Of a DNA stretch of 64,000 nt, positions 5,229 to 51,191 are shown piece after piece. The stretch covers positions 33,697 to 97,696 of the forward strand of contig CAMKSF010000004.1 of the NCBI GenBank assembly GCA_946415375.1. Direction: 5' to 3'. Both the position numbers and the translations under genes were made by a program. The stretch comes from an uncultured Clostridia bacterium. GTDB lineage: Bacteria > Bacillota > Clostridia > TANB77 > CAG-508. Under the pieces are notes generated by a model that saw nothing but the letters and a program-made list of their open reading frames with translations, was not told the origin of the DNA and did not search any database. Position 1 is the stretch's first letter; the number at the start of each line of letters is the position of its first letter.

Positions 5229-5234
5229 GAAAAT

Positions 5235-5880: not shown

Positions 5881-5896
5881 TCTAAGAAGAGTCAAA

Positions 5897-6127: not shown

Positions 6128-6340
6128 TTTGATCCTCCATATATAATGCAAATTAGCAAGTTTCGATGTATATTATACAGTGTATTTACATAAATGTCAA
6201 CATAATAAATAAAAAATAAGATAGTTAAAAAGTATTTTAATTTTTTAAAAATTGAGATATAATTAAAGTATCATTTTATGACCAGACATCTTTACAATAA
6301 AGTATAGTTATATAAAATAAAAAAACAAAGGAAAAAAATA

Positions 6341-7834: not shown

Positions 7835-7836
7835 CT

Positions 7837-10797: not shown

Positions 10798-10905
10798 GAT
10801 AATAAAAACAAAACAACAATTAACAATACAATATGTGACCGAGTAAATTGCAAAACTCCTTAATATACTATATAATTTATAGGTAGTATTAAGGGGGTTA
10901 TTTTT

Positions 10906-32995: not shown

Positions 32996-34417
32996 ATGAT
33001 AGATTCAAAAAATGGAGTAATAGGACTGGCTATTGGAGATGCAATGGGAGTGCCACTAGAATTTTGTATAAGAGAAAAATTGCAAAAAAATATAACAACA
33101 GAAATGTTAGGGTATGGAAGCCATAATGTACCAAAAGGAACATGGTCAGATGATACTTCTATGACACTTGGTTTAATTGATGCGATTAATAAAACTGGAA
33201 ATATTATACCAACAGATATTGCAGATAATTTTGTTAAATGGGCAGAAAACGCAGAATTTACTGCAACAGGTGTTAGATTTGATATAGGAAGAACATGTTT
33301 AAGAGCTATTGCAAATTATGAGAAGGGAATAAATCCAATAGAATGTGGTTTAGATGATGAATTTAGTAATGGAAATGGATCTTTAATGAGAATACTACCA
33401 TTAATATATTATTGCTATGCTAAAAAAATGAATAATACTGAAATATATGAAGTTGTTAGAGATGTATCTTCTATTACTCATAGACACGAAATAAGTATAA
33501 TGGGATGCTATATTTATGTTTTATTTGGAATAGAACTATTAAATGGAGCAAAATTAAATGAAGCATATAAAAAGATAAGAGAAAGTGATTATTCTATGTT
33601 TTCAAAACAATGTCAAAAAAAGTATAATAGAATAATAAACACAGATATTTCTTTATTAAACATGGATGAAATAAGCTCTAGTGGATATGTAGTAGATACT
33701 TTAGAAGCTACTTTATGGGGATTACTTACAACAGATGATTATAACTCTGCTATAATAAAAGTTATAAATCTAGGAAATGACACTGATACTATTGGAGCCT
33801 GTGTAGGAGGACTTGCAGGAATATATTATGGATTAGATAACATTAATAACAACTGGAAAAGTAATTTAATAAAGTATGAATATATTGTAGAATTATGTGA
33901 GAAGTTTAATGGGGTGCTAAATAAAGCTAATTCTAAGAAGATACCAGAAGATAATAGAAATGTTTTCTTTATTGATATTAGAGAAAGGGAAAAAAGAGAG
34001 AAATTTGTAAATGAAATATTAGAATTTGAAGGGATGTCACTTATAAATAATAATGCAGATAGTTTTGATTTAGCTAAAGAAGCGGTAATAAAATCTAATT
34101 TTCCAATTTCAATTGATTTTAAAAAGTTAGAATTAGACTTTTTAAAAAACACTACTACTGCAGCTGCAGCGATAACAAACAAGTCGATATTTATTACTCC
34201 TGAAGAAGCATTAAAAAAGGTAGAAAGTAGATTAAATGAATGGAAAAAATATAAGGAAGAAGTAATTATAAGTTTAACAACACAAGTTTATGAACATACA
34301 GTAGAATATGCAAAAGAATTAGTTGAAAGCTATGAATTAGATATATTTGAAGAATTCTTTTTGAAAAATGAAACACCTTTAGATTGTGCAATTGACATTG
34401 GTTATTGTTGTGGATGA
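32996..34417 (+). CDS. ADP-ribosylglycohydrolase-family protein with a ~170-aa C-terminal extension
   Basis: GLAIGDAMGVPLEF, WSDDTSM, and GNDTDTIGACVGGLAG. Confidence 0.85.
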   Translation: MIDSKNGVIGLAIGDAMGVPLEFCIREKLQKNITTEMLGYGSHNVPKGTWSDDTSMTLGLIDAINKTGNIIPTDIADNFVKWAENAEFTATGVRFDIGRTCLRAIANYEKGINPIECGLDDEFSNGNGSLMRILPLIYYCYAKKMNNTEIYEVVRDVSSITHRHEISIMGCYIYVLFGIELLNGAKLNEAYKKIRESDYSMFSKQCQKKYNRIINTDISLLNMDEISSSGYVVDTLEATLWGLLTTDDYNSAIIKVINLGNDTDTIGACVGGLAGIYYGLDNINNNWKSNLIKYEYIVELCEKFNGVLNKANSKKIPEDNRNVFFIDIREREKREKFVNEILEFEGMSLINNNADSFDLAKEAVIKSNFPISIDFKKLELDFLKNTTTAAAAITNKSIFITPEEALKKVESRLNEWKKYKEEVIISLTTQVYEHTVEYAKELVESYELDIFEEFFLKNETPLDCAIDIGYCCG

Positions 34418-36805: not shown

Positions 36806-36835
36806 ATAAAAAGGAGTATTGTGAGGAGATGGAAT

Positions 36836-37168
36836 ATGAATAAGGATAATTATAAAAAAATAGGAGAAAAATTAAGAAAAGCAAGAGAATATTTGAGTTT
36901 AACACAGGCACAAGTTGCTTCAATTTTAAATTTAGGAAGAGATGCAATTATAAGAATAGAAAATGGAACGAGAAAGATAGATGCAGAAGAATTGTTAAAA
37001 TTTTCAGAATTATATAAAATTAGTATTGATGAGATAGTAAATCATAAAACTACAGTATATACTGAAAATGCTTTTGCTAGAGGATTTGAAAAATTAAGTG
37101 AACAGGATCAAAAAGAAATACTAAATTTAATAAAATTGAAAAATGAGTACAAGAGTAAGGAAGGATAA
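36836..37168 (+). CDS. XRE-family HTH regulator
   Basis: LRKAREYLSLTQAQVASILNLGRDAIIRIENG. ATG 36836 sits 7 nt after GAGGAG (the track starts at GTG 36821). Confidence 0.8.
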   Translation: MNKDNYKKIGEKLRKAREYLSLTQAQVASILNLGRDAIIRIENGTRKIDAEELLKFSELYKISIDEIVNHKTTVYTENAFARGFEKLSEQDQKEILNLIKLKNEYKSKEG

Positions 37169-37169
37169 T

Positions 37170-38540
37170 ATGGAACAAGAAATGACACCAGAGAAATTGG
37201 CAAATAGTGTTTTAGATGAGATTAAGTCTAGACAAGGTGTAATAAAATTTCCGATAGATCCATTTGAATTATTAAAAAATAAAGAAATAATAATATCTTT
37301 TTCAAATTTTGAAAAGCTTGAAGGAATAATACTAAATGATAGAGATAATGTAACAATTGTTGGCATTAATAAAAATAGACCTTGGACAAGACAAAGATTT
37401 ACTGCAGCACATGAATACTGCCATTATATTAAAGATTTAAATAAAGCGGAAAATGAAGTTAATAGAATAGACTGCCTAAAGGGAGCTAAGAGTAAGATAG
37501 AACAATTTGCAGATAGATTTGCATCTTGTTTGTTAATGCCGAGTTTCAAGATTTTAGAATTATGTGACAAATATAAAAATGAAAGAGGTTTTATTGATTT
37601 TGAAAATGTAACATATATGGCTGAATTTTTTGGCGTTAGTTTTAAAAGTTGTATTAATAGATTAGCTTATGATTTTAAAATGATTGAAGGAGATATAACA
37701 CCAAATGCTTTAAAACAAAGAGTTAGAAAGTATAAACCAGAAGTTAAAAGAAAAGAATTAATTAATAAAAATAATGATTTCTTGTTAATTGGAAATGCTA
37801 TAGATAGTTTGAGCTACTGTATGGTAGACTTAAGTACTAATACAGGAGCTAAATTTTTAAATAATTATATTTATTATGACAATAAATTAGAAGGAGTAGA
37901 TGAAGATAAAGTACCATATATTCTTGCAGATTTAACATATAACAAGCAGAAGAGTGAATTTTTACGATCGCAAGATGAAAAAGTAATAATGACTCTTGGA
38001 AATTATAAATTGCAAGAATATATATTAACTACGGATGATATGATTTCAATATTGGACTGCAAGAAAATGCACAAAATGTTATATGCATATGTTCCATTTC
38101 AGGAATTTGCAGGTAATTATAGAGATAATGATGCAATTATTTTAAATGGAACTATACAACCAAGTAGCTATATAACAATTGAAGCAGATATAAAAACATT
38201 AAGTGAAGAGTTTGATTTTTTTATAAAGGATATTAATAACCTAAAAATGAGTGAATATATAGAAAGAGTAGTATATTTTATTTACAGATTTATAAAAATT
38301 CATCCTTTTTCTGATGGGAATGGAAGAGTATCAAGAGCACTATTAAACTGGATGTTGAAACTGAAACGTATACCACCAATATATGTAGACGATAAAAGTA
38401 GAGATGAATACTATAATTCACTTTCGAAAATTGATATAGAAGGAGATTATATACCTTTTATAATATTTGTTGAGAAGAGAATAATAAATACATTAACAGA
38501 ATTGCATGATTATTTATTTACAGAGAATTGGGAGGGATAA
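37170..38540 (+). CDS. ImmA/IrrE-type Zn-metallopeptidase fused to a C-terminal Fic domain
   Basis: N-terminal FTAAHEYCHYIKD (HExxH) and FADRFASCLLMP. C-terminal canonical Fic motif HPFSDGNGRVSRAL. ATG 37170 lies 1 nt after the XRE stop. Confidence 0.8.
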   Translation: MEQEMTPEKLANSVLDEIKSRQGVIKFPIDPFELLKNKEIIISFSNFEKLEGIILNDRDNVTIVGINKNRPWTRQRFTAAHEYCHYIKDLNKAENEVNRIDCLKGAKSKIEQFADRFASCLLMPSFKILELCDKYKNERGFIDFENVTYMAEFFGVSFKSCINRLAYDFKMIEGDITPNALKQRVRKYKPEVKRKELINKNNDFLLIGNAIDSLSYCMVDLSTNTGAKFLNNYIYYDNKLEGVDEDKVPYILADLTYNKQKSEFLRSQDEKVIMTLGNYKLQEYILTTDDMISILDCKKMHKMLYAYVPFQEFAGNYRDNDAIILNGTIQPSSYITIEADIKTLSEEFDFFIKDINNLKMSEYIERVVYFIYRFIKIHPFSDGNGRVSRALLNWMLKLKRIPPIYVDDKSRDEYYNSLSKIDIEGDYIPFIIFVEKRIINTLTELHDYLFTENWEG

Positions 38541-38542
38541 TT

Positions 38543-38947
38543 ATGTGGCCTAGAAATAAATATACTGGTCCAGATGGCGGATTATATACTGGACCAGGGG
38601 GTGGATTATATACTGGCCCAGGAGGCGGAGCATATACTGGTCCAGGAGGCGGGCTATATACTGGCCCAGGAGGCGGGCTATATACCGGTCCAGGAGGCGG
38701 ACTATATACCGGTCCAGGAGGCGGACTATATACCGGTCCAGGAGGCGGATTATATACTGGTCCAGGAGGCGGATTATATACTGGACCAGGAGGCGGATTA
38801 TATACTGGACCAGGAGGAGGAATGTATGATGGCCCTGGAAAACCATATATGAGCAATATTCCACCGTGGGAAGTATTTATTAAAAAATTAGAAGAATATG
38901 GATATACTTATGAAGCTGAATTGATAAAAAGAGCATATTATGGATAA
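38543..38947 (+). CDS. Gly/Pro/Tyr-rich repeat protein, (YTGPGGGL)x11 plus a 40-aa unique tail
   Basis: ATG 38543 lies 2 nt after the Fic stop, with GGGAGGG upstream. Differences between repeat units are synonymous in this frame. The gene is followed by a terminator. Confidence 0.75.
   Translation: MWPRNKYTGPDGGLYTGPGGGLYTGPGGGAYTGPGGGLYTGPGGGLYTGPGGGLYTGPGGGLYTGPGGGLYTGPGGGLYTGPGGGLYTGPGGGMYDGPGKPYMSNIPPWEVFIKKLEEYGYTYEAELIKRAYYG
38561..38824 (+). repeat. 24-bp tandem repeat, 11 units (a 12th decayed unit runs to 38845)
   Basis: tatacYggNccaggNggNggNNta repeated head-to-tail. Local GC is far above the flanks. Confidence 0.95.
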
Positions 38948-38951: not shown

Positions 38952-38988
38952 AGACGGGATCAAAAGAATTTGAATCTCGTCTTTTTTT
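38952..38988 (+). terminator. Intrinsic terminator of the XRE/ImmA-Fic/repeat operon
   Basis: AGACGGGAT (38952-38960) / ATCTCGTCT (38974-38982, one G-T pair), followed by a T-run. Confidence 0.7.
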
Positions 38989-39095: not shown

Positions 39096-39124
39096 TTGAC
39101 AGAAATAGAAAAATATGCTATAAT
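39096..39124 (+). promoter_or_regulatory. Sigma-A-type promoter
   Basis: TTGACA (39096-39101), 17-nt spacer, TATAAT (39119-39124). Confidence 0.55.
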
Positions 39125-39159
39125 TAATATATAGTAGCAAAAAACCAAGGAGGTAAAAT

Positions 39160-40959
39160 ATGAAAAATAATAAAAAAGAAAAGTTTAACTCAGAAGAAAT
39201 ATACTGGAATTTCTTAAATTTATTTAGGGAATATATAGGAAAAGATGACTTTAGAAAAATGTTTTATGCTAAACTATATCTTATATATTTAGCAAAAAGA
39301 TATAAGTTCATCGACTTAAAGGAATGCAAAAATTTTAGTGAACTACTAAAAAAAATTAATGATTTATGGTTTGCACTTGATATTACTAAAGAATACAATA
39401 ATATTAACGATATTAATGAATTATTTGAAAAAAACTATACTAACGAAGAATTAGATGGCGAAATGTTCAATGCAATGTCAAAATTAACTGAAGAAGAAAT
39501 TGCAGAAATATTTAGAAAAAACAGTATAGAATATAAACGATATTCAAGTATACAAAATGATACAACATCAAAATCAATAGCTGAACTTGTAAGCAAAATT
39601 TTAAATATTGAAAACAATGAAGAAGTTTTGGATTTATGTTCTGGTAATGGTGATTTTTTAGCAAGCTTAACGAATAATGAAAAGGATATGAATCTAAATG
39701 GCATTGAAATCGATAAAGATATTGCATTTATATCTAAAATTAGATTAACAGTTTTATCAAATAAAGAGCCTAATATAGTGGTGGATGATGCCTTAACATA
39801 TGATTTTGGTAAAAAATTTGATAAAATATTTTGTGAATATCCTTTTGGACTAAGGGTAGATAGCTATCGAATTAACAAATTAAGTAATCAAATGTTTTAT
39901 TCATGGAACAAACCAGGATTAACATCTGATTGGATTTTCTTAAATAAAATAGTAACATTATTAAAAAACAATGGTATGGCAGCAATATTAATTACTGATG
40001 GGCCTTTGCTTAAATCAATGGATAAGGATTATAGGAAAGATATCCTTGAAAGCAAACTAGTAAAATATATAATTAAATTACCTAGTGGAATAATACCATA
40101 TACTAATATAAATCCGAATTTAATTATTTTATCAAAAGGCAATGATAGAAATGAAATAACATTCATAGATGCCACACAAGAGTATAAAGAAAATAGTCTA
40201 AAAGAAAGACAATTAAATGTTGATTCAATTATGGAATTAATTAATGATAAAAATAATGATACGGATAAAGTGAAGACTGAAAAAATTAATAAAATTTGTA
40301 GTACTGATGATGTAGTATTAACAGTTAATTCTTATGTAAAAAAGAAGGAACCAAATTATATTAATCCACATATACTTAAAGATTATTTAACAGATAAATA
40401 TAGAGGTTACCAATTTTCATCAAAGGAGCAAGCAGAAATAGAAGATATTAATGGAGATTATGAATTATTAACTATTGGGGACATTAATGAAGGCATAATT
40501 AGTAGTAATTTATTAAAAATAAATGGAAATAACAATAAATATGATAGATATTTGCTAAAAACAGGAGATGTTGTGATTTCATCAAGAGGAACTAAAATAA
40601 AAGTAGCAGTTGCTGAAGTAGGGAATAGAAAGATTATACCTAATGGAAATCTATTAGTATTACGTTTAGATACTGAGAAAATAGATCCATATTATTTAGA
40701 AGCATATCTTAATTCTGAAAATGGGCTTTTAACTTTAAAGAAAATACAAACAGGTGCAGTAATTATATCTATTAATCCAAGTAGAATTGAGCAAATAAAG
40801 GTTTCAATGGTAAATAAAGAAGAACAAGAATTATTTGTAGAAAAATATAAACGAAAAATGACAGAATTATTTTTGGCTCAGGAGCATGTAAAAAAACTTA
40901 AGGATCAAATCAACAATTTATTTACAAAAGAAATAGAGGAGAAAAATGGAAATGGATAA
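39160..40959 (+). CDS. HsdM-like N6-adenine methyltransferase fold fused to one HsdS-type target-recognition domain, with a degenerate catalytic motif
   Basis: Motif I VLDLCSGNGDFL. Motif IV reads FCEYPFG (EYPF at 39835-39846) instead of NPPF/Y. C-terminal LKTGDVVISSRGTKIKVAVAE..IPNGNLLVLRL..DPYYLEAYLNSENG is HsdS-TRD-like, followed by a coiled-coil tail. Confidence 0.7.
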   Translation: MKNNKKEKFNSEEIYWNFLNLFREYIGKDDFRKMFYAKLYLIYLAKRYKFIDLKECKNFSELLKKINDLWFALDITKEYNNINDINELFEKNYTNEELDGEMFNAMSKLTEEEIAEIFRKNSIEYKRYSSIQNDTTSKSIAELVSKILNIENNEEVLDLCSGNGDFLASLTNNEKDMNLNGIEIDKDIAFISKIRLTVLSNKEPNIVVDDALTYDFGKKFDKIFCEYPFGLRVDSYRINKLSNQMFYSWNKPGLTSDWIFLNKIVTLLKNNGMAAILITDGPLLKSMDKDYRKDILESKLVKYIIKLPSGIIPYTNINPNLIILSKGNDRNEITFIDATQEYKENSLKERQLNVDSIMELINDKNNDTDKVKTEKINKICSTDDVVLTVNSYVKKKEPNYINPHILKDYLTDKYRGYQFSSKEQAEIEDINGDYELLTIGDINEGIISSNLLKINGNNNKYDRYLLKTGDVVISSRGTKIKVAVAEVGNRKIIPNGNLLVLRLDTEKIDPYYLEAYLNSENGLLTLKKIQTGAVIISINPSRIEQIKVSMVNKEEQELFVEKYKRKMTELFLAQEHVKKLKDQINNLFTKEIEEKNGNG

Positions 40960-41467
40960 AATGGATTTAATACAATTAAGAGAAAGTGTTTTTCAAAAAA
41001 TAACAAAGGAACTTACCAATGCATATTTTAATGGAACAATAGATGACTTTTTGGAAAAATATGATTTAAAAGAAGAAAACAACGATGAATCTTTTTATTA
41101 TGATAGTAATAATGCTAAGATTATAGTAATAGGTGATTCTAGAATAAGCAAAAGCGATATGGAGGGTTTAGCTAAGCACAACGGAATTAATCCTCGAAGA
41201 ATAGAATTCGTTTTAGATTATGAAAAACTTACAAATTTTAATTTTGAAAGATTTAGAAATAATATGAAATATTCTGATATATTAGTAGGCCCTATTCCAC
41301 ATAAAGTTAAAGGTTTAGATGCTGCGTCAAGCTTTTTGAATATGGTGAATAATCAACCAGATTGCTTTCCAAGAGTAATAGCTTTAAGAGATGCAAATGA
41401 ATTAAAGATTACTAAACAATCATTTTTAAATGGATTACTAAAGACAAGATTATTTAATGAAATATAA
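40946..41467 (+). CDS. Small protein, DUF2325-like
   Basis: Overlaps the previous gene by 14 nt. KIIVIGDSRIS...YSDILVGPIPHKVKG resembles my recollection of the DUF2325 pattern (ivGG...aDlvi..td.vsH). Confidence 0.4.
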   Translation: MEMDKMDLIQLRESVFQKITKELTNAYFNGTIDDFLEKYDLKEENNDESFYYDSNNAKIIVIGDSRISKSDMEGLAKHNGINPRRIEFVLDYEKLTNFNFERFRNNMKYSDILVGPIPHKVKGLDAASSFLNMVNNQPDCFPRVIALRDANELKITKQSFLNGLLKTRLFNEI

Positions 41468-41487
41468 AAATTTTGAAAGGAGAAGAA

Positions 41488-42789
41488 ATGAACGAGATTA
41501 GATGTCCAAATTGTGGAAAAGTATTCCAAATTGACGAAACAAGTTATGAGTCAATTGTAAAACAAATTAGAGACAACGAATTCAACAAACAAATAGACGA
41601 AAGAGAAAAACGATATAAAACAGAAAAAGAAAATGAGATAAAACTTGCAGAAGCACACATTAAAGAAGAATTACAAAAGCAGATTAATGATAGGGATATT
41701 GAGCTTGCAGATTTAAAAAATCAAGTTGCAAATATTGAAGAACAAACTAAAACAAAATTAGATAAAGATTACCAAGAGCAAATCAACCAAAAGAATACAG
41801 AAATATTAGAACTAACAAATAAATTGAAATTAAATGAAACAAATAGTAAGCTAGAAATTAACAAAGCTCTTTCAGAAAAAGAACAGAAGATTACTGAATT
41901 AAGTAGTGAACTAGAATTAAAGAATAAAGAATACGAATTAAAAGAGCGTAGTATAAAGGAAGATTTTAATGCGCAACTAAAAAATAAAGATGAGCAAATT
42001 GAGTATTATAAAGATTATAAAGCAAGACAATCAACAAAAATGATTGGTGAGTCTTTAGAGGTTCATTGCAGTAATGAATTTAATAAATTAAGACCGCTGT
42101 TTCCAAAGGCATATTTTGAAAAAGACAATGATGCCCATACAGGCTCAAAAGGCGATTATATTTATAGGGACTTTGATGATGATGGAAATGAAATAGTTTC
42201 TATTATGTTTGAAATGAAAAATGAAGCGGATGAAACGGCAACAAAACATAAAAATGAAGATTTCCTTAAAGAACTAGATAAAGATCGTAGAGAAAAGAAA
42301 TGTGAGTATGCAGTATTAGTAAGTCTATTAGAAATAGATAATGATTTTTATAATAATGGAATAGTAGATGTATCACATAAGTATGAAAAAATGTATGTAA
42401 TAAGACCACAATTTTTTATACCATTAATTACTTTAATACGCAATTTATCAAATAAATCACTTGAGTATCGTAAAGAACTAGAGTTAATTAAAAATAAAAA
42501 TATTGATATTACAAATTTTGAAGATAAGATAGAACAATTTAAAAATGATTTTGGTAGAAATGCAAGATTAGTTGGCGAAAAATTTAAAAAGGCAATTGAT
42601 GAAATAGATAAAAGTATTAGTAGCTTGCAAAAAACGAAAGATAATCTAGTTAGATGCGCAGAAAATTTGCGTATTGCAAATGGTAAAGCAGAAGATTTAA
42701 CAATTAAAAGACTTACACGAGGAAACGAAACTATGAAGAAATTGTTTGAAGAAGCTAGAAAAACAGATGATGATAATCCACAAGATTAA
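41488..42789 (+). CDS. DUF2130-family protein (Zn ribbon, long coiled coil, PD-(D/E)xK-like C-domain)
   Basis: MNEIRCPNCGKVFQIDETSYESIVKQIRDNEF, then a ~150-aa coiled coil, then GESLEVHC..KGDYIYRDF..VSIMFEMKNE. ATG 41488 follows AGGAG (the track starts at TTG 41473). Confidence 0.65.
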   Translation: MNEIRCPNCGKVFQIDETSYESIVKQIRDNEFNKQIDEREKRYKTEKENEIKLAEAHIKEELQKQINDRDIELADLKNQVANIEEQTKTKLDKDYQEQINQKNTEILELTNKLKLNETNSKLEINKALSEKEQKITELSSELELKNKEYELKERSIKEDFNAQLKNKDEQIEYYKDYKARQSTKMIGESLEVHCSNEFNKLRPLFPKAYFEKDNDAHTGSKGDYIYRDFDDDGNEIVSIMFEMKNEADETATKHKNEDFLKELDKDRREKKCEYAVLVSLLEIDNDFYNNGIVDVSHKYEKMYVIRPQFFIPLITLIRNLSNKSLEYRKELELIKNKNIDITNFEDKIEQFKNDFGRNARLVGEKFKKAIDEIDKSISSLQKTKDNLVRCAENLRIANGKAEDLTIKRLTRGNETMKKLFEEARKTDDDNPQD

Positions 42790-42912
42790 TAAAAAAAATA
42801 AAAATTTACCTTATAAAGAGATGAAGATGTAAAAAGACGTGCTTAAAGCTTCACAGCAACCTGCTAAAATAGTAAGGTGCTAAATCACGAAATATAAGAT
42901 AACTTTCAAAAA

Positions 42913-42936
42913 CCAGAAGTTATCTTCTGGTTTTTT
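42913..42936 (+). terminator. Intrinsic terminator
   Basis: CCAGAAG (42913-42919) / CTTCTGG (42924-42930), followed by TTTTTT. Confidence 0.7.
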
Positions 42937-42980: not shown

Positions 42981-43631
42981 GTGGAAAAGTATATTGAAAA
43001 TTATGAAAAAAATGCAGGAAATAATATTACAGAAGAAATGGTTAATTATCTATATAAAAATATTGATAAAGAAGAATTAAAGGAAACATACAAAAAAGTT
43101 CTAAAGAAACTAAAAAAATACAACAATAATTATTATTCAAAAATATGTATAATAATCAATGCTTTAAAATTCAAGAAAGAACAGAATAAAACCTTAAAAT
43201 TTCCCTATGATATTTATTATATAAACTTACCTTTAAGAGGGAGCTTGCAAACAGAAATAAGTGGAAGAAAACATCAAATAAAAACAGTAGAAAAATTAAT
43301 AGAATATGAAGAAATTAATCTTTTATTTGAAGCTATAGGAGAAAAAAAAACTAAAAAACAGAGAAAGAGACTTATCGTAACAGCTAAAGAATTATTAGAA
43401 AAACCAGTTCTAGATATAAATAAAGGTATAGAATGGAAAGAGAATTATAAAAACTATATAATTAAAACATATGGAAGATGGTCTAAAGAATATGAAGACT
43501 ATATGACTACACTATTTGATATAGGCTTTTTACCAATAAGTCCAAACCTATTAATTAGCATAAATAGAGATCATATAAGAAAGGCTATAGAAGAAAAAGT
43601 TGAGTTGTTAGAAAAAAGCAAGATAAAATAA
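42981..43631 (+). CDS. Hypothetical protein (216 aa, Lys-rich)
   Basis: GTG start behind AAAGGAGA. No family recognised. Confidence 0.45.
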   Translation: MEKYIENYEKNAGNNITEEMVNYLYKNIDKEELKETYKKVLKKLKKYNNNYYSKICIIINALKFKKEQNKTLKFPYDIYYINLPLRGSLQTEISGRKHQIKTVEKLIEYEEINLLFEAIGEKKTKKQRKRLIVTAKELLEKPVLDINKGIEWKENYKNYIIKTYGRWSKEYEDYMTTLFDIGFLPISPNLLISINRDHIRKAIEEKVELLEKSKIK

Positions 43632-43705
43632 ATCTATTTTTGAAGTTAGGATTTGATTTATGAAAATAGACTTTTAATTAGTAAATTTGTAAAATATTGT
43701 TGTTA

Positions 43706-43749
43706 AAATATGGATTTTGTGATATAAGATAATATAGAGATATTATAAG
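43706..43749 (+). repeat. Left copy of a ~45-nt promoter-like repeat (partner at 58886-58930)
   Basis: AAATATGgaTTTTgTGATATAAGATAATATAGAGaTATTATAAG. It shares the 20-nt exact core TGATATAAGATAATATAGAG with the right copy. It contains TGnTATAAG (an extended -10) placed 17 nt after TTGTTA. Confidence 0.8.
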
Positions 43750-43816
43750 TGGCTTATAGGTGCATAAGGAGAGTGTTTTACTAGTAAAATAATATAGCGA
43801 AATTTAAGGAATTTTA

Positions 43817-44075
43817 ATGAAAAAATGGTTTATTAGAGAATACTTGGAATACGCCATTAAGAAGATATTTAGATTATGAAATTAAACATTTTGAAAAGTT
43901 AAGTTTACATAGTTTTAGATTTTATACTGATGAAGAACATTCAGATAATTATTATTCTGATTTTTCTATACAATATGGTTTAAGAAACTTATCAAAAGAA
44001 ATATATAAAGATAAATATAAAAAGGAAAGCAAAACTAAAACTATAAAGGGAGATAATTATGATAGAAAACAATGA
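43817..44075 (+). pseudogene. Small ORF broken by a frame change at an A6 run
   Basis: ATG AAA AAA TGG... stops after 20 codons. The +1 frame is open for 84 codons with no start codon and ends at 44075, overlapping the next gene. Removing one A from the run would fuse the two. Confidence 0.3.
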
Positions 44076-46074
44076 TAGCCCAATTGTAACAAAAAATCAA
44101 CTAATTGATATATTATATACTATTAATACTGAAAATGTAAAAACAACACATTATGGTAAAGTAATAAATAAAGAAGGTCTTAATAGTATTATAGATTTTA
44201 TTATTGAATTAGAATCTGAATCCGAGGAAGTATATTGTTTTAAAGATGTTATGATTTTTGACCCAATAATAAAAAAAACTCATGGGTTGGATTTTTCAAA
44301 AGAATTTATGAGTACATACTTTTTTAATATTGGTATTGATAAATACATTTATATATTATCTACAGAATCATGTAAAGAGAAGAATTCTGAAAACAAAATT
44401 AGATTTGTAATTAGGCAATTAGATTTAATACTTAATAATAAACTAAATGAAGGAAACAAAAATAATTGGTTAATAGAAACTAGAAGTAAGTATGTTAATA
44501 TTCTTAATAAATATATAGAACAAAATAAAACGATAACTGAAAAATTAAAAGAATATGATTACATTAAAATTATATCCGATAATAATAAGTACAATAATAT
44601 AAATATTACAGATATAGAAAAATGTTTAGAATTTTTAAAAGAGAATGAACAATATAATTATCTTACGATAGATGAAGAAATAATATTAAAACTAATAATA
44701 TTATATGGGATTAGAAATATCTATTATAATAATACAGATTATTATAAAGAACAATATTCTGAATCAATTAATAAAGCAATTAAAAGTTTAGAATCTTATA
44801 TTTTATTTATTGAAACAAACTCAAAAAATGTAAAAGATATGTATATATATTCAAATAATTATGATGCTTCCATAAATCTATTCGAGTATTTAAACAGAAA
44901 AATAGTTTATGGAAAAATGCTTATAAAGGACGACAAAACAAATTATTTGACTAATAAAGATATAATAATCAAACTAAAAGAAGTATCTTTCTTTAATAGG
45001 TTGTGTATAATTTATCAAAATGAATTTATAATATTAATTAAAAATATGAGATATATTAATTTTGACTATTGTGTTTCAAATAATTTTTTTGAAAAAGCAA
45101 AAGAGCTATTTAAAAAAGATTTAGAATTATTTAAATATTTTAAAGACAATAATTGTAATGCTGAAGATATGTATAAAGAAGTACTAACTAATACAGAAAA
45201 TAAACCTATTGAATTTAAAAGATATATAAAACTAATTCTAAAATATTATATAAGCTGCTATAACTATTTTAAGCATTTTAATGATAATGATAATGCAAAT
45301 AAAGTATTCGATTTTTTACATTTTTTTAAAGATGGCTATGATATTGAAGATTTTATTATAAAAGGTAAATATATAAAAATGTCGGAAGATGTGAATAATA
45401 TAAAGTTAGAAAATATTGATGATATTGATGAAGTTGAAAAAACAATTAATAATATTAACGAAAAAATTACAAAAATGAATTTAGTAAATTCATTTGATAT
45501 TGATGATGTAACAAAAACATATAGTAATATTAAATTTGAAAATTTTAGATTGGAAAATAGAGAAAAAATTAAGACATACATTGCAACTGGTGATAAAATA
45601 ATGAATAGTTTTAATAACGATAAAAACGAGAAGTTTGACTATTCTTCAGCGGTTATTGAGTGGAGTAAAGCTGTTGAACTTGAAATAAATGAAAAGCTTA
45701 TATCAATATTAACAGAGAATGATAAATATAAAATTGAAAACTATTCAAAAGAGATTAATCAGGACAATTTATTTAGAAGTAGTCATCCATTTGTATTAAA
45801 TCTTAAAGATGCTACTATTGGTACTTTTGATGCTATCAAGAAATATAAATTACAAGATTATTTATATAATGAATTCTTTAGCAAAATATATACAGTTGAT
45901 AAAGATACATATAATAATTTATGTAATTATTTAGTTGAAATTGTAATTCCAAGAAATAATTCAGCACATAAAGATAATCCAATTAATTTAGTTACAGCAA
46001 CAGATTGCAAAGAAAAAATATTAACTGCTAATAAGATATTAGAAATTTTATCAAAATTAAAAAGAATTAATTAG
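44059..46074 (+). CDS. Large N/K/I/Y-rich protein with a C-terminal Rx4H (HEPN/DUF4145-like) motif
   Basis: 671 aa. The C-terminal ~170 aa read YSSAVIEWSKAVELEINEKL...IVIPRNNSAHKD (R-x4-H). The N-terminal 500 aa match no family I recognise. Confidence 0.5.
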   Translation: MIENNDSPIVTKNQLIDILYTINTENVKTTHYGKVINKEGLNSIIDFIIELESESEEVYCFKDVMIFDPIIKKTHGLDFSKEFMSTYFFNIGIDKYIYILSTESCKEKNSENKIRFVIRQLDLILNNKLNEGNKNNWLIETRSKYVNILNKYIEQNKTITEKLKEYDYIKIISDNNKYNNINITDIEKCLEFLKENEQYNYLTIDEEIILKLIILYGIRNIYYNNTDYYKEQYSESINKAIKSLESYILFIETNSKNVKDMYIYSNNYDASINLFEYLNRKIVYGKMLIKDDKTNYLTNKDIIIKLKEVSFFNRLCIIYQNEFIILIKNMRYINFDYCVSNNFFEKAKELFKKDLELFKYFKDNNCNAEDMYKEVLTNTENKPIEFKRYIKLILKYYISCYNYFKHFNDNDNANKVFDFLHFFKDGYDIEDFIIKGKYIKMSEDVNNIKLENIDDIDEVEKTINNINEKITKMNLVNSFDIDDVTKTYSNIKFENFRLENREKIKTYIATGDKIMNSFNNDKNEKFDYSSAVIEWSKAVELEINEKLISILTENDKYKIENYSKEINQDNLFRSSHPFVLNLKDATIGTFDAIKKYKLQDYLYNEFFSKIYTVDKDTYNNLCNYLVEIVIPRNNSAHKDNPINLVTATDCKEKILTANKILEILSKLKRIN

Positions 46075-46093: not shown

Positions 46094-46759
46094 TTGGAAA
46101 AGCAACAAGTTAAATCGAAAAAGAGAGTGGCCGATCATGGAGAAGTATTTACCAATCAAAGGGAAGTAAATGCTATGTGTGATATGGTTATTCAGGAAAC
46201 GGAGAGAATAGATTCAAGATTTCTTGAACCAGCTTGTGGGGATGGCAATTTTTTAATTGAAATATTAAAGAGAAAACTAAGAATTGTAAAGAAAAAGTAT
46301 AAAAAAAGCATATATGATTATGAAAGATTTTCGTTACTAGCAATAAGTAGTCTGTATGGAGTAGAACTTTTAGAAGATAATGTTGTTGCATGTAGAAAAA
46401 GATTATATGACTATTGGCAAAGCGAGTATAAAATAGTTAGTAAAAAAGAATATGATGAAAAAGTATCAGATTCAGCAAAATATATTTTAGAACATAATAT
46501 TGTTTGTGGAAATGCATTAAGCTTAAAACGTGTTGATGATAAAGGAAATGATATTGAAACACCAATTATTTTTTCAGAATGGACATTTCCGTTTAATGAT
46601 GCAAGAATGCAAAGAAAAGATTATACATTAGATGAATTAGTTAAAAGAGATTATAAACAACAGGAAATTAACAATACAAATGATGAGGGGAAATTTTTAA
46701 AACAATATATAACACATTATAAGAAATTAAATAATAAAGGGGGAAAAGTTAATGAGTAA
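46094..46759 (+). CDS. Methyltransferase N-domain paralogue (SAM-binding motif I only, no NPPY)
   Basis: HGEVFTNQREVNAMCDMV...FLEPACGDGNFLIEIL parallels the N-terminus of the next gene. No (D/N)PP(Y/F) anywhere. TTG start behind GGAGG. Confidence 0.6.
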   Translation: MEKQQVKSKKRVADHGEVFTNQREVNAMCDMVIQETERIDSRFLEPACGDGNFLIEILKRKLRIVKKKYKKSIYDYERFSLLAISSLYGVELLEDNVVACRKRLYDYWQSEYKIVSKKEYDEKVSDSAKYILEHNIVCGNALSLKRVDDKGNDIETPIIFSEWTFPFNDARMQRKDYTLDELVKRDYKQQEINNTNDEGKFLKQYITHYKKLNNKGGKVNE

Positions 46760-48299
46760 TGGTTTATTAGAAAGTTCATATAATCCTGATGTATTATCAT
46801 GCCTTGCAAATCTTTCAAACGATGAAGTATTTACATCACCTGATATTGTAAATGAAATGCTTGATATGTTACCAAAAGAATTATTTAAGAATCCCGACAC
46901 AACTTTTTTAGAACCAGCATGTAAAACAGGAGTATTTTTAAGAGAAATTGCAAAAAGATTAATAGATGGATTAGAACCACAATTTCCAAATTTAAATGAT
47001 AGGTTAAATCACATTTTTAAGAAGCAGTTATATGGTATATCAGTTACTGAATTAACAAGTTTATTATCAAGGAGAAGTTTATATTGTTCGAAATGGCCTA
47101 ATGGAGAATACTCAATTATAAAATTTGATACTCCAGAAGGAAATATTAAATATAGAAGAATAGAACATACATGGAAAAATGGTAACTGTGTATATTGTGG
47201 AGCAAGTGAAAAAGAGTATAAGAGAGGATCAGACCTAGAAACTTATGCATATCAATTTATACATACTAATAAACCAGAGGAGATTTTTAATATGAAATTT
47301 GATGTTATTATAGGTAATCCACCTTATCAATTAAGTACAGGTGGAGGAGGAGAGCAAAGCAGACAAGCTAAGCCAATATATAATATTTTTATAGAACAAG
47401 CAATGAAAATGAAACCAAGATATTTATCAATGATAATTCCTTCAAGATGGTTTTCAGGAGGAATGGGGTTAGATTCATTTAGAGAAAAAATGTTAAATGA
47501 TAAGTCAATGAGATATTTAGTAGATTATCCTAATTCTTCTGAAGTATTTTATGGAGTTGATATTGCGGGTGGAATATGCTATTTTCTTTGGGATAGAGAC
47601 TATAATGGAGAATGTCAGGTATCTAATATAGAAGGAGGAAAAGAAACAAAGGATATTAGACCATTAAATGAATTTCCGACTTTTGTAAGATATAGTAGAG
47701 CTATTCCGATTATTCGAAAAGTCCTAAAACAAGAAAATGGAAAAAAATTATCCGAGACTATATATCCACAAGGGCTATTTGGATTAAAAACAAATTATGA
47801 ACCAAAAGAAAAAGGTATTCCATGTTGGTTTATACAAAAAATAGGAAGAAAATTTGCGAATAAAGATGACGTAATTGATACTTATAATATACTAAATAAG
47901 TGGAAATTTTTAATACCTAAATCACCTATAGCAGGACAAACTGATTTTACAAAGCCTGTAGGATTTTACTATGATGGCAATACAAGAGTAGCTAAACCAG
48001 GTGAATGTTGCACACAATCTTGGATTGTGGCAGGAGCATTTGATACTGAAGAAGAAGTATTAAATTTTAAATCATATTTATTTACCAAAACTGTTAGATT
48101 TTTACTATTACAACAGGTTGTTTCTCAAGATGTGTCTAGAAATAAATTTTGCTTTGTGCCTGCATTAGAAAAATATGACAAAAGATATACTGATGAAATA
48201 TTAAGAAAAAAATGGGATATTACTGAAGAAGAATGGAACTATATAGATTCGAGAATACATAATTATGGAGATAATAGGGGGGATTATGATGAACAATGA
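46752..48299 (+). CDS. Eco57I-type N6-adenine DNA methyltransferase
   Basis: NDEVFTSPDIVNEMLDML, FLEPACKTGVFLREI, IIGNPPYQL, and RWFSGGMG. Overlaps the previous gene by 8 nt. Confidence 0.8.
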   Translation: MSNGLLESSYNPDVLSCLANLSNDEVFTSPDIVNEMLDMLPKELFKNPDTTFLEPACKTGVFLREIAKRLIDGLEPQFPNLNDRLNHIFKKQLYGISVTELTSLLSRRSLYCSKWPNGEYSIIKFDTPEGNIKYRRIEHTWKNGNCVYCGASEKEYKRGSDLETYAYQFIHTNKPEEIFNMKFDVIIGNPPYQLSTGGGGEQSRQAKPIYNIFIEQAMKMKPRYLSMIIPSRWFSGGMGLDSFREKMLNDKSMRYLVDYPNSSEVFYGVDIAGGICYFLWDRDYNGECQVSNIEGGKETKDIRPLNEFPTFVRYSRAIPIIRKVLKQENGKKLSETIYPQGLFGLKTNYEPKEKGIPCWFIQKIGRKFANKDDVIDTYNILNKWKFLIPKSPIAGQTDFTKPVGFYYDGNTRVAKPGECCTQSWIVAGAFDTEEEVLNFKSYLFTKTVRFLLLQQVVSQDVSRNKFCFVPALEKYDKRYTDEILRKKWDITEEEWNYIDSRIHNYGDNRGDYDEQ

Positions 48300-51174
48300 T
48301 TTTTTTCCTCAAAGACCTCAAATAACTCCAACAATTTATGTATATGAATTGCTAGGAGTAAAAACACATGAGGGATATGTAAAAGTTGGTTATACTGAAA
48401 GAAACGTTACTGAAAGAATTCAAGAACAATTACATACAAGTGCTGTTACATTTAAAATTCTTTATCAAGAATCTTCTATATGTTCAGATGGAACAGTTTT
48501 TACAGATAAAGACGTGCATAAAATACTAAAAAGAAATGGTTTTTTACAATTAAATGAAGGCGATGATAAAAATGAATGGTTTAACTGTAGTGTTGATGAT
48601 GTTAAATCAGCAATAACCGAATTAAAGACAGGAATTAGACATTCAAGAGATAGAATATATAGTTTTGGTATGAGACCAGAGCAGGAAAGAGCTGTACAGA
48701 GAACAATTGACTATTATAATGAACAAAAAGAATATGATAATAAAAGTATACCTAAGTTTTTATGGAATGCTAAAATGCGTTTTGGTAAAACATTTGCATC
48801 TTATCAATTAGCTAAAAGAATGAATTTAAAGAAAATTTTGATAATGACATTTAAACCAGCTGTTGAATCATCTTGGCAAGAAGATTTAGCTACTCATGTT
48901 GATTTTGAAGGGTGGCAATTTATTTCAAATAAAGAAGCTGAATTTGACAATAAAAAATTAGATGATTTATATAATAAAGCAGATAAAGATAAACCAATTG
49001 TTGTATTTGGTTCATTTCAAGATTTATTAGGAACTAATGAAAATGGCGGTATAAAAACGAAAAATGAATTTATACATACAACCTCATGGGACTTAGTTAT
49101 TTTTGATGAATATCATTATGGTGCATGGAGAGAAAAAGCTACTAATTTATTTGAAAAACCAGATGAAGAAAAAGAATCTGATTTTGATTATGAAAAATAT
49201 AAACAGGAAGAAGCTGATAACGCATATAATGAATCTTTTTTACCTATATCTACTAGTTATTATTTGTTTTTATCAGGAACTCCATTTAGAGCGTTAAACT
49301 CAGGAGAATTTATTGAAGAACAAATATTTAGCTGGACATATGGTGATGAACAAAAAGCTAAGGCTGAATGGAAAGGTTCAAATAATCCTTATGAAGCTTT
49401 ACCTAGAATGGTTATGATGACTTATAAAATACCAGATAGTATAAGTCAAATTGCTATGCAAGGAGAGTTTAATGAGTTTGATTTAAATGTTTTCTTCCAA
49501 GCTGAAGGAAAAGGAGAAGAAGCAAAATTTATATATAAAAATGAGGTTCAAAAATGGCTTGATTTAATTAGAGGATCTTTTTTACCTTCCAATATTGATG
49601 ACTTAAAATTAGGACAAGATAAAAGACCACCAATGCCTTATTCTGATGCAAGACTATTAAATATTTTAACTCATACATTATGGTATTTGCCTAATGTTGC
49701 ATCATGCGATGCTATGGAAAACTTATTAAAAGAAAGACAAAATATATTTTACAGTGATTATAAAATCATAAATTGTAGTGGAACAAAAGCAGGAATTGGA
49801 TTAGAAGCATTAACTCCAGTTAGAGTAGCAATGGATGATCCATTAAAGACAAAGACTATTACCTTATCATGTGGTAAATTAACAACAGGAATAACTGTTA
49901 AACCATGGACAGGGGTATTTATGCTTAGAAATCTTAAAAGTCCTGAATCATATTTTCAAACAGCATTTAGGGGACAATCACCATGGGAAATCACTAATGA
50001 TGAAGGTAAAAAAGAAATAATAAAAAAAGAATGCTATATTTTTGATTTTGCATTAGATAGAGCATTAAGAGAAATATCAGATTATAGTTGTCAATTAGAT
50101 ATTAAAGAAAACAATCCTGAAAAATGTGTTGCAAACTTTATAAATTTCTTGCCTGTACTTGCTTATGATGGTTCGTCAATGAAGCAAATTGATGCTCAAG
50201 ATGTATTAGATATTGCAATGGCAGGAACATCAGCAACATTATTAGCTAGAAGATGGGAATCAGCATTATTAGTAAATGTTGATAATGATACATTAAAGAG
50301 ACTAATGGATAATCCTGAAGCTATGAGTGCATTAATGAGAATAGAAGGCTTTAGATCGCTTAATGCTAATACAATAGAAACAATTATTAATCGCTCTGAA
50401 AATGTAAAGAAAGCAAAAGCAGAGGGAGAAGAAAAGACAAAGAAAGAAAAAGAAGAATTATCAGAAGAGGAAAAAGAAGTAAAATCATTAAGAAAACAAG
50501 TTCAAGAAAAACTGATTAAATTTGCAACAAGAATACCAGTATTTATGTATTTAACAGATTATAGAGAAAGATCATTACAAGATGTAATTACTCAATTAGA
50601 ACCAGAGCTATTTAAAAAAGTAACAGGATTAGACACAAAAGATTTTGAACTTTTGTGTAGTATTGGGGTATTTAATTCTAGTCTAATGAATGAAGCAATA
50701 TTTAAGTTCAAGAGATATGAAGATTCAAGTTTATCTTATACAGGTATAGATAAACATGCAAATGATGAAACAATAGGTGGATGGGATACGGAAATTAAAA
50801 AACAAGAATATGAAATAATGTTTTATAACCAACAAGAATCTATGAAAGCCATCGATAATCCTTTTGAAGAAGCACTAAAAGAAGCAATTATAGAAGAAAA
50901 AGAAATTGAAAGCTATGGAGATAAAATTGCTGAAAGTCAACAAGAATATATCAAAAATGATGAAAAAAACATATATGCAACTCCGATTGATGAACAAATT
51001 AAAATGTTAAATAACATTAAAGAAGGATTAATAGTAAGTCATAAAAAATTTGGTATTGGAAAGATTACATGGGTGTCTAAGGATAAAACCCATATTAAAG
51101 TGGAATTTAAAGAAGGAGAAAAGAAATTTATATCACCAGATGCGTTTTTACAGGGACATTTAAATATTATATAG
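48286..51174 (+). CDS. GIY-YIG-like (T5orf172-type) N-domain, SF2 (DExH) helicase, and a PcrA/UvrD-type Tudor-like C-terminal tail
   Basis: YVYELLG..VKVGYTERNV..NEWF. Helicase motifs AKMRFGKT, IFDEYHYG, LSGTPF and QTAFRGQ. C-terminal VSHKKFGIGKITWV..IKVEFKEGEKKFI. ATG 48286 follows AGGGGGG and overlaps the methylase stop. Confidence 0.8.
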   Translation: MMNNDFFPQRPQITPTIYVYELLGVKTHEGYVKVGYTERNVTERIQEQLHTSAVTFKILYQESSICSDGTVFTDKDVHKILKRNGFLQLNEGDDKNEWFNCSVDDVKSAITELKTGIRHSRDRIYSFGMRPEQERAVQRTIDYYNEQKEYDNKSIPKFLWNAKMRFGKTFASYQLAKRMNLKKILIMTFKPAVESSWQEDLATHVDFEGWQFISNKEAEFDNKKLDDLYNKADKDKPIVVFGSFQDLLGTNENGGIKTKNEFIHTTSWDLVIFDEYHYGAWREKATNLFEKPDEEKESDFDYEKYKQEEADNAYNESFLPISTSYYLFLSGTPFRALNSGEFIEEQIFSWTYGDEQKAKAEWKGSNNPYEALPRMVMMTYKIPDSISQIAMQGEFNEFDLNVFFQAEGKGEEAKFIYKNEVQKWLDLIRGSFLPSNIDDLKLGQDKRPPMPYSDARLLNILTHTLWYLPNVASCDAMENLLKERQNIFYSDYKIINCSGTKAGIGLEALTPVRVAMDDPLKTKTITLSCGKLTTGITVKPWTGVFMLRNLKSPESYFQTAFRGQSPWEITNDEGKKEIIKKECYIFDFALDRALREISDYSCQLDIKENNPEKCVANFINFLPVLAYDGSSMKQIDAQDVLDIAMAGTSATLLARRWESALLVNVDNDTLKRLMDNPEAMSALMRIEGFRSLNANTIETIINRSENVKKAKAEGEEKTKKEKEELSEEEKEVKSLRKQVQEKLIKFATRIPVFMYLTDYRERSLQDVITQLEPELFKKVTGLDTKDFELLCSIGVFNSSLMNEAIFKFKRYEDSSLSYTGIDKHANDETIGGWDTEIKKQEYEIMFYNQQESMKAIDNPFEEALKEAIIEEKEIESYGDKIAESQQEYIKNDEKNIYATPIDEQIKMLNNIKEGLIVSHKKFGIGKITWVSKDKTHIKVEFKEGEKKFISPDAFLQGHLNII

Positions 51175-51191
51175 AAAAGGAAGTGATAATA

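Follow-up and report, generated by a model that had tools for sequence, protein, structure and literature searches.

A Type I-like methylase protein with a non-canonical motif IV and a conserved target-recognition domain heads a three-gene operon with a DUF2130 nuclease-like gene in an uncultured Clostridia bacterium

We analysed a stretch of 64,000 nucleotides (nt) from an uncultured Clostridia bacterium (assembly GCA_946415375.1, contig CAMKSF010000004.1, positions 33,697 to 97,696), hereafter the window, in which three genes form an operon at 39096-42789. All the operon features given below are on the forward (+) strand. Gene 1 ('MS', 39160-40959) encodes a single-chain protein of 599 amino acids (aa) that resembles gamma-class N6-adenine methylases. 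Gene 2 ('g2', 40946-41467) encodes 171-173 aa, with a start at 40946 or, more likely, at 40952, behind a GAGGAG site; it shares 8-14 nt with the end of gene 1 and is translationally coupled to it. Gene 3 (41488-42789) encodes a DUF2130 (PF09903) protein; its open reading frame (ORF) opens with a TTG at 41473, and the likely start is the ATG at 41488, which carries a ribosome-binding site and lies 20 nt past the stop of gene 2. Our results suggest that gene 1, although built like a methylase, reads a constant target, and that in the clade of the window it has been joined to a nuclease-like gene.

A sigma-70-type promoter (TTGACA, a 17-nt spacer and TATAAT, with a TG extension; 39096-39124) is the sole 12/12 match between 36500 and 44200, and ends 36 nt before the AAGGAGG ribosome-binding site and the ATG (39160) of gene 1. 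Note that, in the 7.7 kb scanned, promoter-like sites occur at chance level (54 against 53.3 expected, in a window of about 25% G+C), so that only the perfect match and its position count as evidence. A hairpin with a T-run, read by eye, lies upstream of this promoter at about 38953-38988, and an intrinsic terminator with a 12-bp stem, a 4-nt loop and a T-run closes the operon at 42908-42935. An earlier note on this DNA, made from the sequence alone, had proposed that one promoter drives three overlapping or abutting genes, and the perfect promoter match, the gene overlaps and the terminator bear this out. The three genes are best explained as a compact, horizontally mobile cassette within a defence island, and the same island is present in relatives that are 96% identical.

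Gene 1 matched the Pfam model N6_Mtase (PF02384) over aa 136-397 (E=6.8e-28, 98.3 bits against a cut-off of 20.4) and the PADLOC model Specificity_I, for Type I specificity, over aa 365-593 (E=3.2e-18). This family match, together with the motif order X-I-II-III-IV followed by a target-recognition domain (TRD), identifies the gamma-class N6-adenine methylase fold. The AlphaFold2 model (predicted local distance difference test score, pLDDT, of 86) starts with a helical, HsdM-like N-terminus, continues with the methylase domain and a single beta-rich TRD, and ends in a long C-terminal helix. In Foldseek, its top match was the Vibrio vulnificus Type I methyltransferase crystallised with the DNA mimic Ocr (7eew), and the others included PacII M1M2S, CamA (template-modelling score, TM, of 0.55), HsdM subunits, M.BseCI, M.TaqI and the Type IIG enzyme BpuSI, with E values down to 5e-23 (against HsdM, PacII, CamA and M.TaqI). 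Motif I, which binds S-adenosylmethionine (AdoMet), reads LDLCSGNGDFL (39628-39660), and its D158, G162 and G164 are invariant or nearly so in 30 diverse members; motif II reads NGIEID (39697-39714), with the E/D kept in all loci. The single, Esub1-like TRD (aa 410-552; 40387-40815) includes a KYDRYLL 'insertion helix' (40537-40557), and its best sequence match among solved structures is Esub1 (8vsr, E=1.2e-11, over aa 429-576). It is followed by the long C-terminal helix (aa 553-597; 40816-40950; modelled as helices 553-585 and 587-597), the equivalent of the conserved-region or dimerisation helix of HsdS. PADLOC gave only generic Type I M and S matches for gene 1, and the MADS models stayed far below the NCBIfam equivalog cut-offs (MAD5, 45 bits against 400; MAD2, 27 bits against 720).

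These results agree with the earlier description of gene 1 as a gamma-class methylase carrying one HsdS-type TRD, supported here by Pfam, PADLOC, AlphaFold2 and Foldseek, with its motif I, and with the placing of an EYPF tetrapeptide at 39835-39846: the coordinates are exact and EYPF aligns with motif IV. The same note had called gene 1 an HsdM-HsdS fusion, but a single-chain build is normal for Type II gamma-methylases (M.TaqI, CamA, M.XmnI). Gamma-methylases of the M~S type, with one chain, form an established class (Loenen et al., PMC3874165), so that the fusion by itself is nothing unusual.

Motif IV of gene 1 is EYPF in place of (N/D)PP(Y/F/W). In an alignment of about 130 relatives of gene 1, the canonical motif was found in none. 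The majority carry NYPF, and the remaining states are EFPL, EYPL, EYPF, DYP[FWL], NYP[WL], QYPL, FPPF, FPPA, NCGF, TYPF, HYPF and EAPF; in some members the catalytic position is occupied by F, Q, T, H or A. In the Type I-linked loci the adjacent HsdM carries NPPF or NPPY in 25/25 cases. As a sequence motif, the EYPF of the window departs both from the NPP(F/Y) of HsdM and from the (N/D)PP(Y/F/W) of active methylases. The oddity of this tetrapeptide, already remarked on, is real and no one-off: E-[YF]-P-[LF] is fixed throughout the clade of the window. Judged by these motif states, loss of methyl transfer by gene 1 is plausible.

The TRD is the slowest-evolving and most conserved part of gene 1. 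Compared with gene 1 of the window, P0057 is 39% identical in the N-terminus, 57% in the methylase domain, 75% in the TRD and 69% in the C-terminal helix; for P0070 the same values are 14%, 35%, 58% and 31%. Over all gene 1 pairs, a methylase identity of 0.5-0.6 corresponds to a mean TRD identity of 0.75. The canonical HsdS of the neighbouring Type I systems provides an internal control, because it is hypervariable in the very loci in which the TRD of gene 1 stays constant. Thus, the loci L049 and L056 are 99% identical in gene 1, in gene 2 and in HsdM but only 39% identical in HsdS, and L022 and L032 share 81% in gene 1, 77% in gene 2 and 91% in HsdM but only 37% in HsdS. Where a classical Type I system has a separate, variable HsdS with two TRDs, gene 1 has one TRD that is fused to the methylase and conserved. 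Since TRDs that serve both methylation and restriction normally diversify, gene 1 apparently recognises something constant; to judge from these comparisons, it appears to read a constant target, unlike a diversifying specificity domain of a restriction-modification (R-M) system.

Gene 2 is the usual translationally coupled partner of gene 1, ancestral and obligate, and represents a new Rossmann-like family. Its AlphaFold2 model (pLDDT 86) shows an N-terminal helical hairpin and a Rossmann-like beta-alpha-beta domain, and its invariant residues cluster in two motifs, VGPxPH (VGPIPH in the window, 41285-41302) and ELKITK (41399-41416). The family comprises at least 709 clusters at 90% identity, and 998 clusters at 50% identity at E<=1e-3. 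No Pfam, NCBIfam, PADLOC or PHROG model matched gene 2, and a Foldseek search of the PDB and BFVD returned nothing at E<=1e-3 (TM<=0.39), leaving noise only, of generic Rossmann-like, RecA, TIR, receiver and Toprim-like folds. Gene 2 had been called DUF2325-like, a label we have to withdraw: the hidden Markov model of DUF2325 (PF10087) gave no match even at E<=10 in gene 2 and 52 homologues, and none at E<=1 in eight longer proteins that carry the gene 2 domain. A relation to SUKH/SMI1_KNR4 was rejected as well, as the weak matches in 12/53 members (best 7e-4) had no Foldseek support, and so was a role as toxin or DNA mimic, the isoelectric point of about 5.2 being unremarkable and like that of its partners. 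By tblastn, gene 2 had no match in 50,697 phage and 72,556 plasmid records.

In seven loci the gene 2 domain forms the C-terminus of coiled-coil proteins of 320-446 aa, with no gene 1 nearby (L033, 3042-4382; L058, 3068-4330; L050, L052, L053, L055 and L059). In L033 and L058 this long protein shares an operon with a UvrD-like superfamily 1 (SF1) helicase and a protein of 590-611 aa; the L033 operon also holds a DnaG-like primase, and in L059 a WYL regulator is adjacent.

Scanning a genome collection with a gene 2 profile gave 51 loci, spread over Firmicutes, Verrucomicrobia, Lentisphaeria, Planctomycetes, Proteobacteria, Spirochaetes and Actinobacteria, and in 44 of them gene 2 has a single domain. 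A relative of gene 1 lies directly upstream of gene 2 in 42/43 evaluable loci, an adjacency with examples in Firmicutes, Verrucomicrobia, Lentisphaeria, Planctomycetes, Proteobacteria and Actinobacteria. Downstream of the pair and on the same strand, HsdM/HsdS/HsdR genes follow in 25/37 evaluable loci, with gaps down to 12 bp; DUF2130 follows in four, and neither in the other eight, among them L031, L034, L040 and L061 and also L047, where the pair is followed by an SF1 helicase-PD-(D/E)xK fusion. Judging by this synteny, the pair ancestrally stood immediately in front of complete Type I R-M operons. The 'R-less' layout claimed before stands for the window itself, which has no HsdR, but it is a derived state, most relatives preceding Type I operons that include HsdR. 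Moreover, the pair and the Type I modules recombine independently: L025 and L049 are 81% identical in HsdM but only 35% in gene 1.

Some of these loci carry further genes. In L007 (7126-7656), and also in L008-L011, a 176-aa ORF without family match lies between HsdS and HsdR of the Type I system that follows the pair and is thereby restriction-linked; considered as a second gene 2, it was rejected as unrelated (13% identity). The contigs of L007-L011 also have a MobA/MobL relaxase gene just 5' of gene 1. In L062, from Anaerostipes hadrus, the pair is flanked (4943-7906 and 10468-11817) by a TOTE-type protein with archaeo-eukaryotic primase (AEP), helicase and phospholipase D (PLD) parts and by a 449-aa protein that joins AIM24 to the C-terminal domain of SeqA, which binds hemimethylated GATC.

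Gene 3 is a full-length member of DUF2130 (Pfam E=1.5e-88, 296.8 bits against 26.7, profile positions 3-254 of 255). In it, an N-terminal CPxC knuckle and then a coiled coil precede a C-terminal core of predicted PD-(D/E)xK type, with GSKGD at 42142-42156 and FEMK at 42208-42219. D223, E242, K244 and the CPxC are invariant in seven distant homologues (52-77% identity). DUF2130 has been assigned to the PD-(D/E)XK superfamily without a known function (Steczkiewicz et al., PMC3424549). The Pfam match and these invariant residues confirm the earlier assignment of gene 3 to DUF2130 with a GD..E-M-K signature. The 'Zn-ribbon' that went with it has to be dropped, as there is a single CxxC knuckle only (Zn_ribbon_4, 17 bits against a cut-off of 30). 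Note that C6 and C9 of the knuckle (41503-41517) are invariant, and so are H193 and C194 (42061-42072), some 190 residues further on, where the predicted nuclease core starts. This pattern may reflect a metal site that links the N-terminal knuckle to that core instead of a self-contained zinc ribbon.

DUF2130 is a generic and usually solitary protein, apparently a recruited effector rather than a dedicated restriction subunit. Copies in Lactococcus, Proteobacteria and Actinobacteria share 50-55% identity with gene 3, which has no clade-specific insertion relative to the proteobacterial ones. In 80 DUF2130 loci sampled from metagenomes, neither gene 1 nor gene 2 was found near DUF2130 (0/80), and matches to Type I genes were nearby in three (L120, L141 and, weakly, L093). 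Their same-strand neighbours belong to 118 Pfam families, among which OLD-type ATPases, AAA_13 and helicases are modestly over-represented, and the closest unlinked relatives sit among housekeeping genes. PADLOC matched gene 3 to LmuB at the level of the coiled coil only, and literature searches for DUF2130 and COG4487 returned no functional study. On the lactococcal phage-resistance plasmid pNP40 (L064, 7001-10871), DUF2130 is followed by a TrlF-family AAA-like ATPase, and the plasmidome paper places this DUF2130 in no system. On a Citrobacter plasmid (L065, 5118-13531) it lies between an OLD-type ATP-dependent endonuclease and a methylase with a DEAD helicase. DUF2130 may be an effector in further uncharacterised defence loci.

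Gene 1 of the window belongs to a clade that has E at motif IV, and in all the lineages examined there (12/12) DUF2130 comes after gene 1, over gene 1 identities down to 55%. The lineages are that of the window (with L072-75) and those of L001, L013, L014, L015, L016, L067, L070, L156, L157, L159 and L161. Gene 2 is absent from three of them (L070, L157 and L161), and there DUF2130 comes directly after gene 1. The flanks differ: some copies lie in defence islands with GmrSD, NERD, RloB or SieB, others are inserted bare, with infB-rbfA-truB' on one side and gap-pgk-tpi on the other, or flanked by spoIIIAB and a tRNA methylase gene. The three genes had been read as one candidate operon, and the counts agree with this, with gene 1 and gene 2 adjacent in all but one of the evaluable loci and gene 1 and DUF2130 linked throughout the clade in unrelated settings.

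The linked DUF2130 proteins are of two types, 55-59% identical to each other, and in a neighbour-joining tree unlinked homologues branch between them; moreover, L015 joins a type-B-like gene 1 to a type-A DUF2130. On these trees, the clade apparently recruited a generic DUF2130 more than once. In the neighbour-joining tree of gene 1, the outgroups of the E clade of the window are L003 (DYPW) and L017 (EFPL), both Type I-linked, so that the E state is older than the link to DUF2130. A change from N to E arising jointly with that link was ruled out for this reason, because L017 and L003 branch outside the DUF2130 clade.

As for the surroundings of the operon, tblastn found no relative of HsdR, HsdM or HsdS elsewhere in the 64-kb window (HsdR tested with two references), which extends to the whole window the earlier statement that HsdR is missing. 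The ResIII protein at 48265-51174 bears a T5orf172 domain and is part of a separate, Eco57I-like system; it is not the HsdR of the operon. This second restriction-like system (46094-52115) has a methylase split into an MmeI_Mtase-like ORF (221 aa) and an Eco57I ORF (515 aa), a 969-aa T5orf172 (GIY-YIG-like)-ResIII helicase and a DUF4268 protein. Between it and the terminator, two ORFs of 216 and 671 aa (42981-46074) form the stretch of lowest G+C in the window (19.5-22%); neither of them matched anything in Pfam, NCBIfam, PADLOC or PHROG, and the related island of L072 and L074 has conserved both.

On the other side, a gene with an Xre-type helix-turn-helix and, overlapping it, a 465-aa fusion of an M78/IrrE-like peptidase with Fic (36821-38540) lie upstream of the operon. 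The fusion matched capP in PADLOC (6e-28), its Fic domain is SoFic/PDC-S04-like, and the whole, immediately 5' of the operon, resembles a regulator-protease joined to a Fic toxin; a Fic gene likewise precedes the unlinked DUF2130 of L076. The end of the fusion gene is overlapped by a 139-aa ORF (38528-38947) without family match, made mostly of a 24-bp unit repeated 10.9 times with 91% matches (38560-38821) that encodes GPGGGLYT units. In the 96%-identical relatives its orthologue is called with 134 aa, so its called length varies between strains. Finally, an ADP-ribosylglycohydrolase gene lies a few kb 5' of the operon (32996-34417). A member of that family and a Macro-domain gene also stand upstream of a distant gene 1 and gene 2 pair in L071 (2164-5297), which may be coincidence or a recurrent neighbour.

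The constant TRD, a motif IV that is never canonical alongside AdoMet motifs that are kept, and the position in front of Type I operons are, taken together, best explained if gene 1 is a binding module. We propose, with a probability of about 40%, that gene 1 arose from a Type I-like methylase and works as a fixed-target sensor or decoy, and we infer that it controls a nuclease. It would have the shape of a Type I methylase core without being a specificity-diversifying modification enzyme. As a decoy it could capture anti-restriction DNA mimics of the Ocr or ArdA kind; as a reader it could recognise one constant DNA feature. With or without gene 2, and presumably by protein interaction, gene 1 would gate a nuclease, namely an HsdR-containing complex in most relatives and DUF2130 here, so that in the clade of the window an ordinary DUF2130 (RmuC-like PD-(D/E)xK) nuclease would take the place of the Type I operon. 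The result would be cleaved DNA, whether in defence or in abortive infection. The earlier suggestion of a sequence-reading sensor coupled to a nuclease survives in part: the constant-target TRD and the strict link between gene 1 and DUF2130 favour it, but DUF2130 is no dedicated restriction subunit.

Several observations weigh against this proposal. Motifs I and II for AdoMet are conserved in the family, whose members may still methylate, and NYPF, found in the majority, is similar to the N-x-P-Y motif of active ribosomal RNA adenine methylases; many members, possibly also the E variants, may therefore be methylases. That E is so strictly conserved in the clade also points to a function more than to decay. 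In gene 2 no toxin, nuclease or signalling domain can be recognised, and the gene is dispensable in three lineages. In L031, L034, L040 and L061 the pair stands alone among housekeeping genes with no nuclease nearby. DUF2130 itself is generic in its identity across phyla, its 0/80 linkage and its 118 neighbour families, and gene 3 may simply be a self-sufficient neighbour. Finally, the gene 1 and DUF2130 trees are unbootstrapped neighbour-joining trees.

A wider form of the sensor or decoy proposal, which we consider doubtful, would make the pair a widespread, undescribed module guarding restriction, with a pseudo-methylase or altered methylase imitating the DNA-binding groove of Type I enzymes. 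Gene 1 would then trap DNA mimics or read a constant, perhaps modified, DNA feature through its flipped-base pocket, and the nuclease that it activates would be exchangeable, be it an HsdR complex, DUF2130 or, in L047, an SF1 helicase-PD-(D/E)xK fusion.

Other explanations start from an active gene 1. The operon would be a 'Type 1 1/2' or Type II-like R-M system if gene 1 were a methylase of fixed specificity, probably a homodimer on a symmetric bipartite site, that marks self DNA and recruits a non-specific DUF2130 to unmethylated sites with gene 2 as adaptor. Dimerising single-chain M~S enzymes (M.XmnI, M.DrdI) and M+S enzymes with simple nucleases (AhdI) are established (PMC3874165), and the kept AdoMet motifs, the strict E, the methylase-first order with translational coupling, typical of R-M operons, and the 12/12 link of gene 1 to DUF2130 would all fit. 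However, the shared TRDs of Type I, IIG and III systems diversify, whereas that of gene 1 is its most conserved part beside hypervariable HsdS neighbours; the motif (N/D)PP(Y/F/W) is missing from every member, the catalytic residue being F, Q, T, H or A in some; most relatives already lie beside a complete Type I system that brings M and S of its own; and DUF2130 is usually solitary among housekeeping genes, with no methylase. On balance we find such a system unlikely. Least probable of all, to the point that we would hardly expect it, is an orphan epigenetic methylase of conserved specificity (CamA-, Dam- or CcrM-like) acting in host gene regulation, with genes 2 and 3 unrelated to defence. 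Conserved TRDs are typical of orphan regulatory methylases and CamA is among the best structural matches, but the patchy cross-phylum distribution, which looks horizontally transferred, the defence-island settings, the non-canonical and variable motif IV and the tight link to Type I systems or nucleases all speak against it.

The remaining two explanations dissolve the cassette or tie it to Type I systems. Gene 1 with gene 2, on the one hand, and DUF2130, on the other, could be self-sufficient and merely co-located and co-transcribed, DUF2130 being a stand-alone nuclease of recombination, repair or defence. The absence of the pair from the 80 sampled DUF2130 loci with their heterogeneous neighbours, the housekeeping surroundings of the nearest unlinked relatives, the four loci with the pair alone and the lack of a clade-specific insertion in gene 3 are what this would predict. 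It has to contend with 12/12 linkage over gene 1 divergence to 55% and unrelated flanks, with a link that survives the loss of gene 2, with two distant DUF2130 types in one slot and a recombinant (L015) that keeps the architecture, and with the single promoter and terminator and the 20-nt spacing; we regard it as rather improbable. Alternatively, the pair could be an accessory of Type I systems, either an alternative methylase core borrowing HsdR for a second, constant specificity or a regulator of restriction (establishment or alleviation), and the cassette of the window a derivative that lost its Type I partner. The same-strand Type I operon directly downstream in 25/37 loci, at gaps down to 12 bp, and the HsdM-like N-terminus of gene 1 would suit this, and PacII (PMC9613975), which is also a Foldseek match, is an example of a non-canonical Type I system that has two M subunits. 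But no HsdR, HsdM or HsdS was found in the 64-kb window, DUF2130 cassettes are inserted between housekeeping genes without Type I genes, and the pair and Type I modules recombine independently (L025 and L049), which leaves this option little room.

Few bacterial defences are as common as Type I R-M systems, which phages overcome with DNA mimics. To our knowledge, guarding of these systems is known from a few cases only (PrrC, PARIS and Ronin). The pair occurs in several phyla, usually fronts Type I operons and has features that contradict a normal modification role. If gene 1 is indeed a guard or decoy, a major layer of restriction biology would have gone unrecognised, nature would have repurposed a methylase fold as a sensor, and DUF2130 would gain a first functional handle and, as an effector of immunity, its first assigned role. 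If EYPF or NYPF methylases are active instead, the accepted catalytic motif of N6-adenine methylases would widen.

In PADLOC 2.0, NCBIfam, Pfam and the searchable literature we came across no account of the gene 1 and gene 2 pair, of its occurrence with Type I systems or of any system that contains DUF2130. From classical Type I R-M systems the operon differs in lacking HsdR, in lacking a separate, variable HsdS with two TRDs and in lacking NPP(F/Y), as the earlier note had held when it set the layout apart from Types I, II and III. Among Type II enzymes, M.TaqI, CamA, M.BseCI and M.XmnI/DrdI likewise have a gamma-methylase followed by an HsdS-like TRD, with a possible dimerisation helix, and the M~S enzymes and M.AhdI (M2S2; 2M+2S) are partnered with simple nucleases (PMC3874165). 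These M~S enzymes have, however, canonical NPPY/NPPF and a cognate sequence-specific endonuclease, whereas the family of gene 1 has E/N/D/Q/F-[YF]-P-[FLW], a slowly evolving TRD, a conserved small partner and a generic DUF2130. As a DUF2130/PF09903 (COG4487), RmuC-like protein, gene 3 is typical, and what sets it apart is only its strict linkage to gene 1 within this clade.

Among solved structures, the TRD and helix of gene 1 are closest to Esub1 of Streptococcus pyogenes (8VSQ/8VSR), a half-HsdS that dimerises through its C-terminal helix and whose insertion helix is bound by the phage protein paratox (PMC11754733). This insertion helix aligns to KYDRYLL, but Esub1 is a free-standing 23-kDa protein without a methylase domain, encoded distal to the hsd genes. 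A likeness at the level of the fold is offered by METTL14, a catalytically dead methylase fold with an EPPL (E-x-P-L) tetrapeptide that serves as a nucleic-acid-binding scaffold (PMC5023411). METTL14 belongs to a eukaryotic RNA system, the METTL3-METTL14 m6A writer, and shares no homology with gene 1 other than the fold. It no longer binds AdoMet, whereas in gene 1 motifs I and II are preserved.

As for guards of restriction, PrrC (with EcoPrrI) is encoded by an accessory gene in or abutting an hsd operon and backs up restriction when phages inhibit it. The rlo genes are further restriction-linked guard genes in Type I loci. PrrC and RloC are, however, anticodon nucleases with ATP-binding cassette (ABC) ATPase heads; the pair has neither, and duplicates the M and S functions instead. 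Ronin is an HsdR-less HsdMS with an effector that senses Ocr and ArdA, and its methylase activity is dispensable (Silas et al., 10.1101/2023.04.06.535777). As in Ronin, a Type I-derived methylase/specificity module without HsdR stands with a non-HsdR effector beside restriction systems; Ronin is proposed to lure anti-restriction proteins as a decoy. Ronin has a separate, canonical HsdM (NPPF) and an HsdS with two TRDs, whereas gene 1 joins a methylase whose motif IV is non-canonical to one TRD in a single chain. The Ronin effector RonA, compared here by description, is a 61-aa membrane toxin, and no 61-aa transmembrane gene lies within the operon, which has instead the 171-aa gene 2 product, soluble in its AlphaFold2 model, and the putative PD-(D/E)xK nuclease. 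Thus, the components are known folds, and the logic of the operon resembles that of the Ronin/PrrC-type guards and of the M~S methylases.

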